Origin: a virus
Lineage: Duplodnaviria > Heunggongvirae > Uroviricota > Caudoviricetes
IMG/VR virus record: IMGVR_UViG_2695420793_000012
Reading direction: 5' to 3' (one strand)
DNA length: 3,444 nt
Part shown: piece by piece, positions 1-3,444 of the stretch
Layout: each line of letters begins with the position of its first letter
Numbering within the stretch: the first letter of the stretch is position 1
The notes under the pieces: model-generated
Databases searched by the model: none
What the model saw: the letters and a program-made list of their open reading frames with translations, nothing else
Told to the model about the DNA's origin: nothing
Position numbers and translations under genes: made by a program

Positions 1-393
1 ATCGTCTGCGCGGAAATGGACGAACAGTGGGGATACGTCGGGGCTAAATCGCGCCAGCGCTGGCTGTTTTACGCGTATGACAGGCTCCGGAAGACGGTTG
101 TTGCGCACGTATTCGGTGAACGCACTATGGCGACGCTGGGGCGTCTTATGAGCCTGCTGTCACCCTTTGACGTGGTGATATGGATGACGGATGGCTGGCC
201 GCTGTATGAATCCCGCCTGAAGGGAAAGCTGCACGTAATCAGCAAGCGATATACGCAGCGAATTGAGCGGCATAACCTGAATCTGAGGCAGCACCTGGCA
301 CGGCTGGGACGGAAGTCGCTGTCGTTTTCAAAATCGGTGGAGCTGCATGACAAAGTCATCGGGCATTATCTGAACATAAAACACTATCAATAA
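1..393 (+). CDS. insB: IS1 transposase InsB, C-terminal part (5'-partial at window edge)
   Basis: Frame 1 open from base 1 ([31 protein letters not shown]...[15 protein letters not shown]), stop TAA 391-393; matches recalled InsB C-terminal sequence. Confidence 0.95.
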
Positions 394-408
394 GTTGGAG
401 TCATTACC
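386..408. repeat. IS1 right terminal inverted repeat (about 23 bp)
   Basis: Reverse complement of 386-408 reads GGTAATGACTCCAACTTATTGAT, the canonical IS1 end. Confidence 0.9.
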
Positions 409-784
409 TATTTTTCTTACCTGATTCGGGTAATGTTGACCATTCACTGACCACATTATTAATGCCGGTATTCCGCCCGCTCTGAATAAAAATCCCACGC
501 TTTACCAGAACACTTTTTGCAGCAGAACACTTGTGCGGCAATATCCCGGTTAATTCGGAAAGTTGCTCGTTGCTAACCCAATCCAGTTTTTTATTAAAGC
601 CATATGTTTTGCGCATGACAGCCAGAAAGACCAGAAGCTGGTGCTGTGTTAATCCGGCCAGCATCACAGCTTCCAGCAACTCATTTGCAATGCGCGTATA
701 ACCATCATCGAGATCTGCCACGCGCGGCTCCTTTTGTGCCGCATCCGGCACTGGAAAATTGAATATCTCAGCAGTGTTTGCCAT
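404..784 (-). pseudogene. Lambda O-like replication initiator, N-terminal DNA-binding domain only (126 aa); C-terminal part removed by IS1, stop codon supplied by the IS1 end
   Basis: ATG at 784-782 with GGAGG 4 nt upstream; MANTAEIFNF...RVADLDDGYTRIANELLEA...LLVFLAVMRKTYGFNKK...SEWSTLPESGKKNR resembles recalled lambda O N-terminus (MTNTAKILNF...NVADLDDGYARL...LRKTYGWNK). Frame runs into the IS1 IR, stop TAA at 406-404. The listed ORF start at 874 would overlap the upstream gene. Confidence 0.8.
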
Positions 785-870
785 AATTCCTCCCGCAATG
801 AGTGTGTTACGATTTGCACCTGAAAGTCGGTTCTGTTCCAGCAGACCGGCTTTCGCCATTTCTGAACCTG

Positions 871-1410
871 TCATATCGCCCCCAGCATGGTAGTAACCAT
901 CGCCATCAATGGACCAGCCAGATCTGGGTCCACACGAAACATCGACACAATACCTTCACTAATTTCCTTCAGTTTCTGGTGGCGTGGTGCGTTGAGAATG
1001 ACAGCCTGTTTTGCCTCACTGAGTTCCTTTTCCATTTCAGCCAACCTAGCCATGAAGCTATCCTGCTCAACCAGGTAACCGCGATATTCCAGCGGTAGTA
1101 CCGCCAGAATTGCCGGGGTCAGTTCACGCACGTTATTTCGGTATTTTTCAGAATCGAATTTGTTATCGAGGAAGCGGAACAGCTTCTGGCGTGCACGGCT
1201 GACATCATCAGGGAAATCGATGGTGCCGCCGCCCTGCTCCCGATACTCATTCACAATGAGTGTGGCAACGACATCCTGATTATCTACAGCCGACCAGGCG
1301 CGGACGGCATCACGGATTTTTTCGTGGCCTGGCACCTGTTTTGTTTGAGAACGATTTATCACCGCAGTCGGGCTAAATCCGCTAGTCTGTTGGTATGTAA
1401 GTGGTTGCAT
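871..1410 (-). CDS. ydaT: YdaT-family protein (proposed functional analog of phage CII; historically annotated as putative toxin), 179 aa
   Basis: Strong RBS AAGGAG 6 nt upstream of ATG (1410-1408). Motifs NEYREQGGG and LTPAILAVLPLEYRGYL match recalled E. coli YdaT (EEYLRQGGG, LIPAILAILPRELRHRL). Sits in the cII position between cro-like and O-like genes. Confidence 0.75.
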   Translation of the reverse strand: MQPLTYQQTSGFSPTAVINRSQTKQVPGHEKIRDAVRAWSAVDNQDVVATLIVNEYREQGGGTIDFPDDVSRARQKLFRFLDNKFDSEKYRNNVRELTPAILAVLPLEYRGYLVEQDSFMARLAEMEKELSEAKQAVILNAPRHQKLKEISEGIVSMFRVDPDLAGPLMAMVTTMLGAI

Positions 1411-1429
1411 AATTGACTCCTTTAGTTTG

Positions 1430-1449
1430 AATTGACTGTTAAGTTGATT
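1430..1449 (+). promoter_or_regulatory. Direct repeats TTGACT-N6-TTGATT (AATTGACT also at 1411-1418); candidate binding site for the CII-like activator / PRE-like establishment promoter reading toward the repressor gene
   Basis: Seen in sequence: ttgactgttaagttgatt; position (cro/cII-analog junction) and direct-repeat-N6 geometry parallel lambda CII sites TTGC-N6-TTGC at PRE. Function is inferred. Confidence 0.25.
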
Positions 1450-1454
1450 GCTTA

Positions 1455-1467
1455 TTGTTAAAGAGCG
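1455..1467 (-). promoter_or_regulatory. boxA-like element (nutR-like position), CGCTCTTTAACAA on minus strand
   Basis: Reverse complement of 1455-1467 is CGCTCTTTAACAA, matching the boxA consensus CGCTCTT(T)A and the rrn boxA core GCTCTTTAACAA; lies 12 nt downstream of the cro-like stop. No convincing boxB hairpin follows. Confidence 0.4.
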
Positions 1468-1479
1468 TGAAATGGAAAT

Positions 1480-1710
1480 TTAAGCTGCGTTCTTTTCGGT
1501 GTGTGGAAACAACTTCGGAAGATCCGGGCGAATCTGGTATGCCTTCACTACTCCACCAGTAGCCGTAACAATGCTGCCGACATGTTCAGGGGATACCTTT
1601 GCTTTGTTGTGAAGCCACTTATAGACGGCCTGCTGTGAAACTTCGCAAGCAGCGCCCAGTTTCTTTTGTGAACCAACGATATTGATCGCTGTTTTGATAG
1701 CTGGGTTCAT
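1480..1710 (-). CDS. ydaS: Cro-like HTH regulator, YdaS family, 76 aa
   Basis: ATG 1710-1708 with GGAGG 5 nt upstream; divergent from the repressor gene; pattern IVGSQKKLGAACEVSQQAVYKW...ATGGVV...IRPDL resembles recalled YdaS (VVGGQSAMARLLGVS...W...ATRGEV...LRPDI). Confidence 0.75.
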   Translation of the reverse strand: MNPAIKTAINIVGSQKKLGAACEVSQQAVYKWLHNKAKVSPEHVGSIVTATGGVVKAYQIRPDLPKLFPHTEKNAA

Positions 1711-1737
1711 AACAACCTCCGTGGTTAATTTGAATCA

Positions 1738-1766
1738 AGATTAAAACTATGGTTGTTTTTAGTCAA
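1738..1766 (-). promoter_or_regulatory. PR-like sigma70 promoter for the cro-like operon (-35 TTGACT at 1766-1761, 17-bp spacer, -10 TAATCT at 1743-1738)
   Basis: Minus strand reads GGTTGTTGACTAAAAACAACCATAGTTTTAATCTTG; -35 overlaps the operator palindrome; near-identical to the module downstream of the repressor gene (2790-2823). Confidence 0.5.
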
Positions 1767-1773
1767 CAACCAT
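1749..1773. promoter_or_regulatory. Operator palindrome ATGGTTGTT-N7-AACAACCAT (OR-like); further half-sites AACAAC(C) at 1711-1717 and GGTTGT at 1798-1803
   Basis: Perfect 9-bp inverted-repeat arms seen directly in sequence, centred between the divergent cro-like and repressor genes and overlapping the PR -35. Confidence 0.55.
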
Positions 1774-1779
1774 TTTCGT

Positions 1780-1808
1780 TTGATGGAATAAAACCTTGGT
1801 TGTACATT
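1780..1808 (+). promoter_or_regulatory. PRM-like promoter candidate for the repressor gene (-35 TTGATG 1780-1785, 17-bp spacer, -10 TACATT 1803-1808), giving a leaderless or near-leaderless transcript
   Basis: Hexamers are weak matches; no usable Shine-Dalgarno before ATG 1815, as for lambda cI from PRM. Confidence 0.3.
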
Positions 1809-1814
1809 TGGACT

Positions 1815-2504
1815 ATGAAAACAACACTCTCAGAAAGACTTAAAGAAGCCAGATTAGCGCGAGGCCTTACACAAAAGGCGCTTGGGGATTTGGTCGGGGT
1901 TAGCCAGGCTGCTATTCAGAAAATCGAAACAGGGAAAGCTAATCAAACAACTAAAATCGTGGAGATCGCGAACGCTTTGGGTGTGCGCGCAGAATGGTTA
2001 TCTTCTGGCGTTGGAAATATGTCAGACAGTACAGTGCAACCAATACAATCAACTGTCAGCCATTCCAAATACTTCAAGATTGACGTTCTTGATATAGAAG
2101 TCAGTGCTGGGCCGGGAGTCATCAACCGTGAGTTTGTAGAAGTTCTACGCTCGGTTGAGTACTCGTTTGACGATGCTCGTCACATGTTCGATGGTAGGAA
2201 GGCGGAAAATATCCGCATCATTAACGTGCGTGGTGACAGCATGTCAGGAACGATCGAACCAGGTGATCTGCTGTTCGTTGATATCACAGTTAAATCTTTC
2301 GACGGTGATGGTATCTATGCGTTTCTGTACGACGACACAGCCCATGTAAAGCGCCTGCAAATGATGAAGGATAAGCTGCTGGTCATCTCTGATAACAAAA
2401 GCTACTCACCGTGGGACCCGATCGAGAAAGACGAGATGAACCGGGTGTTCATCTTCGGTAAGGTTATTGGGAGCATGCCGCAGACATATAGGAAGCATGG
2501 GTAG
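1815..2504 (+). CDS. cI-like phage repressor: N-terminal XRE-type HTH plus C-terminal LexA/S24 autopeptidase domain (229 aa from ATG 1815)
   Basis: HTH LTQKALGDLVGVSQAAIQKIE; putative Ala-Gly cleavage site in DIEVSAGPG; catalytic Ser in VRGDSMSGTIEPGDLLFVD and Lys in AHVKRL. The upstream in-frame ATG at 1749 lies inside the operator palindrome, so 1815 is preferred. Confidence 0.9.
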   Translation: MKTTLSERLKEARLARGLTQKALGDLVGVSQAAIQKIETGKANQTTKIVEIANALGVRAEWLSSGVGNMSDSTVQPIQSTVSHSKYFKIDVLDIEVSAGPGVINREFVEVLRSVEYSFDDARHMFDGRKAENIRIINVRGDSMSGTIEPGDLLFVDITVKSFDGDGIYAFLYDDTAHVKRLQMMKDKLLVISDNKSYSPWDPIEKDEMNRVFIFGKVIGSMPQTYRKHG

Positions 2505-2625
2505 TACCAATTAAAAATTATCAACTGGGCATTGTGCTCATTCAGTAAAGAACTAATTCCTATCTTTGCTCTAGGTAATAATATTAAACCACCGCAATAA
2601 TATCTTTACCTAACGGCGTAAGAAT

Positions 2626-2652
2626 CCCGGTCACCGTGCCGGGTTTTCTTTT
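2626..2652 (+). terminator. Intrinsic terminator downstream of the repressor gene
   Basis: GC stem CCCGG(2626-2630)/CCGGG(2639-2643) with short loop, followed by TTTTCTTTT (2644-2652). Confidence 0.6.
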
Positions 2653-2779
2653 GCCCTCCCCTCATCACACACACCGTTAAAAAAACCACCATAACCTCGC
2701 TTCAGTTATCGCTATGCGATTCAAGTCACAAAATAAATCCATCCTAAATACAACCAGTTATATCTAAAACAACCAATAA

Positions 2780-2823
2780 AACAACTTTTGTTGTTGACGA
2801 TAAAACAACTATAGTTTTAAATA
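2780..2823 (+). promoter_or_regulatory. PL/OL-like promoter-operator module: palindromes AACAAC-TTTT-GTTGTT (2780-2795) and GTTGTT-N8-AACAAC (2790-2809); -35 TTGACG 2794-2799; -10 TTAAAT/TAAATA 2817-2823
   Basis: GTTGTTGACGATAAAACAACTATAGTTTTAAATAAG is near-identical to the PR module on the opposite strand at 1733-1768; downstream of repressor gene and terminator, oriented away from the repressor as lambda PL is. Confidence 0.5.
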
Positions 2824-3254
2824 AGTTCATCGCAACAACACAACGATACGGCAACTACCTGATTCACCGTTGCGATGACCGCTTAGATCCGCAGTTTGAA
2901 TTTCAGCAGGCTTCGGGGAGTGCGAGGGGTGAAACGGACGCGTGAACGTCGGTGTGACCAGCTGAAATTAACTCAACATTTCATACCTTAGTCGCTTCAA
3001 CGAGGCGGCTTAGTTATGACAACCGGCGGCCATCCACCGCCTGAATACGCGCAGAAGTCTCTATATGTTCAGCAGCCCAGCTTACGGGCAGGAGTTTTTA
3101 TGGTTCATCAACATTATGGAACGCAGACCGTTAATCGAGGTGCGGTCATGCCAGGAATGCTGGTCAAACACAAAGATGGTACCTGGACTGCATCAGCTAA
3201 TTTACGCGGACGGCTTTATCTGCATCGCGGCATCGAGCGCACTTATACCCGTGA

Positions 3255-3444
3255 TTTGCTCGTGGAAGTTTTTCTCGACGGACGCGGTACTCCGTTACGA
3301 AGCGAGGCTGGGTATTTCCCGGCCTTTCTGTTATCCGAAAGATGCGCATCGACAGCAAGACATCATGGCTATCAGCTTGTCGTCGTGCAGGAATTGAAGA
3401 TTTCCGTTTCCATGACCTCAGACACACCTGGGCAAGCTGGCTGA
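3255..3444 (+). pseudogene. Tyrosine recombinase (phage integrase) 3' fragment, 5'-truncated and apparently frameshifted; continues past window end
   Basis: Frame 0 from 3255 reads ...[46 protein letters not shown], containing the integrase box II motif HDLRHT. In-frame stops at 3198 and 3252; no room for an N-terminal domain; possible continuation in frame 2 ([12 protein letters not shown], 3278-3313) implies a frameshift near 3305. Confidence 0.7.

Follow-up and report, generated by a model that had tools for sequence, protein, structure and literature searches.

What became of a lambdoid replication initiator gene that runs straight into the end of an insertion sequence, and could the locus still replicate, or interfere with the replication of other phages? 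The question is raised by the window, a stretch of 3,444 nucleotides of tailed-phage DNA (IMGVR_UViG_2695420793_000012) that matches the chromosome of E. coli strain 165, and 18 other complete genomes, at 100% identity. The site of the prophage, at tRNA-Arg and next to fimZ/sfm, is the DLP12 locus. The features of the window on which the argument rests are the following.

1-408, plus strand: the 3' part of an IS1 (IS1B-type), 408 bp of the 768-bp element.
16-393 (ORF), plus strand: the insB part of the IS1 transposase (DDE_Tnp_IS1, E=2.9e-74).
386-408, plus strand: right terminal inverted repeat of IS1 (reverse complement GGTAATGACTCCAACTTATTGAT), which pairs with the left repeat GGTGATGCTGCCAACTTACTGAT.
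409-417: the first 9 bp of target DNA beside IS1, TATTTTTCT, a would-be target-site duplication with no copy at the other IS1 end.
417-433: sole surviving origin iteron, TTACCTGATTCGGGTAA, number 5 of 5, closest to the part that codes for the N-terminal domain, with LPESGK as its translation.
404-784, minus strand: O', a truncated O-like replication initiator of 125 native codons fused in frame to the junction codon AGG (arginine) and a TAA stop from IS1.
785-874, minus strand: open upstream extension of the O frame, with the PGAP start at ATG 874 overlapping the stop of the YdaT-like gene (ATGA).
871-1410, minus strand: YdaT-domain protein of 179 aa, encoded at the place of cII in the early right operon (Pfam YdaT_toxin, E=8.5e-30; called cII in PhiR34_1).
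1480-1710, minus strand: Cro-like HTH protein of 76 aa (YdaS/P22_Cro families; called Cro in PhiR34_1).
1815-2504, plus strand: cI-like repressor, intact, with HTH and S24 autopeptidase domains (HTH_3, E=5.4e-13; Peptidase_S24, E=1.2e-18).
3333-3444, plus strand: start of an integrase C-terminal fragment beside tRNA-Arg (RefSeq: L001 15333-15635 in strain 165; the same fragment is present in strain H3).

The element is IS1 by its length of 768 bp, its imperfect terminal inverted repeats and its frameshifted insA/insB transposase, as judged from the strain 165 locus and from Pfam. All 768 bp, with both inverted repeats, are found in strain 165 (L001 11641-12408), where RefSeq labels the element an IS1B family transposase and annotates the programmed frameshift. 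On sequence reading, the last base of the right inverted repeat (...GGAGTCATTACC) is 408, and from 409 onward the target DNA reads TATTTTTCT. A preliminary description of this DNA had the minus-strand O-like frame meet the inverted repeat at 408/409, its last codon lie across the junction and its stop codon come from IS1, and on each point it was right: the ORF listing and the sequence reading agree on the place of meeting, AGG is the reverse complement of 407-409 (two IS1 bases and one target base), and TAA is the reverse complement of 404-406, within IS1. Of 5,426 complete E. coli genomes, 19 match a 160-nt probe across the junction (329-488) over its full length with 100% identity, and the junction is therefore not an assembly quirk.

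The minus-strand frame as listed runs from 874 to 404 and, counted from the ATG at 784, has 126 codons ending in ...LPESGKKNR*. Codon 126 of the intact allele is AAA (K), so that 125 native residues are left in O'. The 126-aa product aligns with Phage_rep_O (PF04492) over model positions 1-95 of 95 (residues 21-115; E=1.4e-34; 118.9 bits, the cutoff being 28.7), which bears out the earlier equation of these ~126 residues with the iteron-binding N-terminal domain: the entire model is covered and the cut falls just after the domain. The C-terminal domain that recruits P-DnaB is absent from O', residues 127-309 of the intact allele being missing. On its domain content O' is a fragment of a Phage_rep_O family member and not a functional member, and its RefSeq label is 'replication protein, incomplete, missing C-terminus', a partial pseudogene beside IS1. 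(PGAP begins this pseudogene at the ATG at 874, which gives 156 codons, 30 residues more than from 784, and the PhiR34_1 record likewise starts upstream. The ATG at 784 is probably the true start and that at 874 is not, because the alignment with lambda O puts M1 at 784, MANTAEIFNF vs MTNTAKILNF, and GGAGG is located 4 nt upstream of it.) A search by sequence for solved structures matching O found none.

What the gene looked like before truncation can be read from IS1-free genomes, of which strain H3 is an example: these are 100% identical to 409-3444 of the window, and their O gene runs for 309 codons. The intact protein is 99.4% identical to the O protein of PhiR34_1 and 66-67% identical to lambda O along its full length; the figure of 67% over the full length of the intact allele substantiates the earlier identification of the gene as a true lambda-O homologue. 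The resemblance to lambda is that of a mosaic, with an N-terminal domain 47% identical and a C-terminal half almost identical. A P gene of the lambda-P family (PF06992, E=7e-62) follows O directly in strain H3.

Lambdoid origins consist of iterons and an AT-rich tract within the O gene (PMC7466680, PMC5043065). The preliminary description had assumed as much here, and the intact allele does carry mid-gene five palindromic 17-mers of the TTACCTGATTCGGGTAA type (L002 11914-12025 in strain H3) and then an AT-rich stretch. Comparison with intact O, the search that had been suggested for the breakpoint, places it in the 12-bp AT-rich spacer that separates iterons 4 and 5. The origin content of the window is accordingly one iteron (one site, against 0.01 expected by chance) and no AT-rich tract, four iterons having been lost. 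[quoted passage not shown] The intact iteron array of this origin type is common, being present in 2,386 of 5,426 complete E. coli genomes (~44%).

The locus is thus predicted to be incapable of replication, because it has no P, no C-terminal domain of O, a single iteron and no AT-rich tract. The earlier judgement, 'very probably replication-defective', holds as far as it goes but understates the case, since P is gone too and the prophage was dead before the IS1 event. In the IS1-free relatives the integrase is truncated, the left arm (N to int) is gone, and tail and lysis genes survive as fragments; decay this advanced in the relatives implies that the IS1 event struck an already dead prophage.

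The left-arm loss is visible in the window itself. Between the repressor and the integrase fragment, 2505-3332 are 830 bp without an annotated gene, containing a terminator-like hairpin (2626-2643) and OL-like sites. The segment has the look of a scar from an earlier deletion in which the entire left arm, N to int, was lost; the IS1-free genomes that fully match 409-3444, strain H3 among them, share it. Near-palindromes of 17 bp, AAAACAACYATAGTTTT, occur at 1743-1759 between the cro-like and cI-like genes and at 2802-2818 downstream of cI, with a weaker one at 2778-2794 (three sites, against 0.02 expected by chance); in this immunity type they probably serve as the operators OR and OL. The genes at 871-1710 on the minus strand carry the Pfam and PGAP names 'toxin YdaT' and 'toxin YdaS' and fill the positions of cII and cro; YdaT is equivalent in function to CII (PMC9986795), and YdaT and YdaS have been argued to be regulators rather than toxins (PMC9986795, PMC5917428). 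A search of the window against the Rfam families is empty at E<=1, leaving an oop-like RNA unsupported, and a promoter and terminator scan of the window is at or near background.

The decisive evidence on the origin of the junction comes from the other end of IS1, which lies outside the window. To the left of IS1 in strain 165 stands nucleotide 816 of a truncated alpha/beta-hydrolase gene, followed by ompT, envY, ybcH and nfrA. The 9-mers that flank the element, AGAGATAAG on the left and TATTTTTCT on the right, differ, which means that the element lacks a target-site duplication. Both flanks are collinear with strain H3 (99.93% and 99.99% identity), which has 15,028 bp at the place where strain 165 has IS1. 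(What this means for the genes is that IS1 joins O codon 126 to hydrolase nucleotide 816, two points that are 15 kb apart in the IS1-free relatives.) Read from the O side, the segment in H3 comprises the 3' half of O, P, a SIR2-family gene, ybcN, ninE, ybcO, rusA and quuD of the nin/Q region, then a porin gene, holin, J and tail-fibre fragments, a pin-type recombinase gene and ydfK, a methyltransferase gene, and the last 669 bp of the hydrolase gene. [quoted passage not shown] Relocation of the O 3' half in the same genome, by inversion or translocation, was considered and rejected: adding the O 3' half to the query brought no extra match in strain 165 (6 places either way, at megablast sensitivity), so that the 15-kb segment is deleted and not moved.

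These observations change the reading of the junction. The preliminary description had taken it for a simple IS1 insertion, which should have left a copy of 409-417 at the other IS1 end and the 3' half of O beyond it. The copy was looked for in strain 165 and is absent, AGAGATAAG standing where TATTTTTCT was expected, and past that end come the truncated hydrolase gene and ompT and not the rest of O. The comparison with IS1-free strains that had also been proposed comes out in two parts: O is indeed intact at 309 aa there and truncated only together with IS1, but the difference is the loss of 15,028 bp and no simple interruption. We therefore regard 386-784 as the scar left on the right-hand side when a cryptic lambdoid prophage underwent an IS1-associated deletion, and O' as a pseudogene remnant, with a probability of roughly 0.9.

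The SIR2-domain gene of the lost segment deserves a separate remark. In strain H3 it encodes 643 aa (L002 8658-10589) and is situated between P and the nin region; by its domain it is a candidate anti-phage defence moron. Other cargo is found at the same spot elsewhere, namely an inverse autotransporter gene with a hydrolase gene in AH21C062, and ren-emrE-ybcK in STEC388 and PhiR34_1.

How the deletion arose is a separate matter, on which the 19 genomes that share the junction are informative. They fall into three groups by left flank (hydrolase, n=10; ISAs1, n=6; cusF, n=3), with one genome per class assigned at the sequence level and the rest by match start and annotation.

Class A, 10 genomes: the left end of IS1 lies directly against the hydrolase gene.
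Class B, 6 genomes: the left IS1 end (L009 6000/6001) is at an ISAs1 transposase remnant, 9,929 bp further out (L001 1712-11640); ompT, envY, ybcH, nfrA and nfrB are additionally missing.
Class C, 3 genomes: the left IS1 end (L010 6001/6002) is at cusF, another 7,601 bp out; vgrG, cusS, cusR, cusC and most of cusF are missing as well.

In three genomes checked by sequence, one for each class, IS1 is byte-identical and the right junction is identical. This identity argues for a single ancestral event behind the junction in all 19 genomes. The same three genomes, at the sequence level, have a fixed right IS1 end, nested left endpoints and a single retained IS. A fixed IS end with nested endpoints opposite it is the classical signature of transposase-promoted adjacent deletion. 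Adjacent deletions are reportedly a classical activity of IS1 (Reif and Saedler are said to have described them in 1975).

The sequence of events that we propose begins with insertion of IS1 into the AT-rich spacer between iterons 4 and 5, at TATTTTTCT. A transposase-promoted adjacent deletion would then have run outward from the left IS1 end and removed the duplicated 9-mer together with everything up to the hydrolase gene, and in sub-lineages deletion would have continued to ISAs1 and then to cusF. The order of these events is conjectural, in the sense that a first insertion in the hydrolase gene and a rightward deletion would yield the same product. Among the matches listed for complete E. 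coli genomes, none has the simple insertion at TATTTTTCT that this history postulates.

Lost target duplications are typically the result either of adjacent deletion or of recombination between IS copies (PMC11708052), and the latter is the strongest alternative to the route just described. Two direct copies of IS1, one in O at TATTTTTCT and one in the hydrolase gene at AGAGATAAG, would have recombined, deleting the 15 kb between them and leaving one hybrid IS1. The end product, a single IS1 with unmatched flanks, would be the same, the process is a recognised cause of missing duplications (PMC11708052), and its substrates are plentiful, with 3-32 matching places per record that are mostly IS1 copies. 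Against it, class A would need two independent insertions as well as the recombination, and classes B and C further insertions in ISAs1 and cusF; neither single-insertion intermediate is among the matches listed for complete genomes; and the nesting of endpoints opposite a fixed IS end is the pattern expected of adjacent deletion. Reciprocal junctions were sought in the 5,426 complete E. coli genomes, as the best 40 pieces per record in 365-379 IS1-rich records, where a full-length junction match would presumably rank above pieces of IS1 alone, and among the matches listed there is neither a junction of the O 3' half and TATTTTTCT with the left IS1 end (CAGGTAAACTTTATTTTTCT joined to GGTGATGCTGCC) nor one of the right IS1 end with AGAGATAAG and the 3' part of the hydrolase gene; since neither is among them, these searches do not separate the two deletion routes. 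On balance adjacent deletion is the route that we favour, if only with moderate confidence, and recombination between IS1 copies appears unlikely; the odds between the two are roughly 2:1.

A different kind of alternative accepts the deletion and disputes that O' is a mere remnant. O' would be a retained functional gene, whose free N-terminal domain sits on the iterons of phages with the same origin type, whether incoming or co-resident, and blocks their replication, a dominant-negative form of exclusion; its putative expression would come from the early right promoter once the cI-like repressor is inactivated or leaky. The DNA-binding domain is complete and the ribosome-binding site intact, as are the upstream cro-like and YdaT genes and the repressor; the cognate origin type, carried by 2,386 of 5,426 genomes, offers no shortage of targets; and pieces of the lambda replication region are able to confer exclusion of lambda-type phages (PMC3349717). 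That exclusion (the 'inhibition phenotype'), however, depends on oop RNA and iterons 3-4 and not on the O protein (PMC3349717). Furthermore, there is no sign of selection on O', the 19 copies being identical by descent, its endpoint was set by IS1 and its fusion end is arbitrary, and PGAP flags it as a pseudogene. We consider a functional O' very improbable, and would give a shade less credence still to the version in which the orphan O' domain and its one cognate iteron, under intact cI and cro, constitute a domesticated dominant-negative inhibitor. Were it true, expression of O', for instance once the S24 repressor has been cleaved in an SOS response, would block replication of superinfecting or co-resident lambdoid phages with the TTACCTGATTCGGGTAA origin type.

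The least probable reading, that IS1 merely interrupted O and that the rest of O, the origin and P continue past its other end behind a 9-bp duplication of TATTTTTCT, can draw on a right junction that has exactly the look of an insertion junction and on an IS1 that did just this to the same type of gene in AH21C062, but it is contradicted by a left flank that is a hydrolase fragment ending in AGAGATAAG and not O, by the 15,028 bp absent relative to the collinear strain H3, and by the reciprocal junction that is absent among the matches listed for the 5,426 genomes. A simple insertion at TATTTTTCT survives only as a possible first historical step in the deletion that we prefer.

The AH21C062 prophage, which is located at icd, is a positive control for simple insertion. 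Its IS1 is independent and of a different variant (L003 8316-9083), lies in the same O type 108 bp from the breakpoint of the window, on the AT-rich side of the iteron array, and has a perfect 9-bp duplication, TTGTTAGTT, on both sides and both halves of O. With this one further independent IS1 in the O type we do not claim the lambdoid origin as an IS1 hot spot. Other IS1 candidates (L011, L013, L014 and L015) have IS1 elsewhere in or beside the prophage. In one of these, E. coli isolate 58 (NZ_OW968011; L015 1501-2270), IS1 joins cusS to the gene just downstream of P at the same locus, from which it follows that IS1-bounded erosion of this region happened more than once.

At least three of the 19 junction genomes come from the ST101 hospital lineage: MS6192 and MS6193 (bioRxiv 10.1101/860726) and CREC-591 (PMC5884925) are ST101 carbapenemase producers. 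The exact junction of IS1 with O', carried by 19 of the 5,426 complete genomes, marks a clone cleanly, which gives it a modest practical value. The host genes lost in the sub-lineages, which concern the OmpT protease, adsorption of phage N4 (nfrA/nfrB) and Cu/Ag efflux (cus), are a likelier source of phenotype than the truncated O. IS1-bounded prophage decay is an ordinary event of a known kind and RefSeq already flags the truncated gene; the general biological weight of the locus is small, that of a textbook case of insertion sequences eroding cryptic prophages.

Comparison with known systems places each part of the locus. The deletion has the properties of IS-adjacent and IS-recombination deletions (mechanism: PMC11708052), that is, one IS at the junction, no duplication and endpoints nested on one side, and mechanistically there is nothing new in the window. 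PhiR34_1 (PV340559, deposited as a DLP12-like lambdoid phage) has the same order of cI, cro, YdaT-type 'cII', O and P, and an O that is 99.4% identical, but its O is full-length, all its iterons are there and P is present, where the window has a remnant truncated by IS1. With lambda O and ori-lambda the intact allele shares collinearity, the almost identical C-terminal half, a lambda-P-family gene next to it and an origin in mid-gene; it differs in the N-terminal domain (47% identical) and in having five TTACCTGATTCGGGTAA iterons in place of lambda's four 19-mers, and of all this the window keeps only residues 1-125 and one iteron. DLP12 of E. coli K-12, at argU, occupies the same locus, bounded by tRNA-Arg with fimZ/sfm at one end and by ompT-envY-ybcH-nfrA at the other. 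Each of the two prophages is a lambdoid remnant in decay, and the nin-region genes ybcN, ninE, ybcO, rusA and quuD are common to them. The K-12 prophage presumably keeps int-xis and the nin-lysis region and has no O; the variant in the window, in contrast, has kept the block of cI, cro, YdaT and O' and lost the rest.
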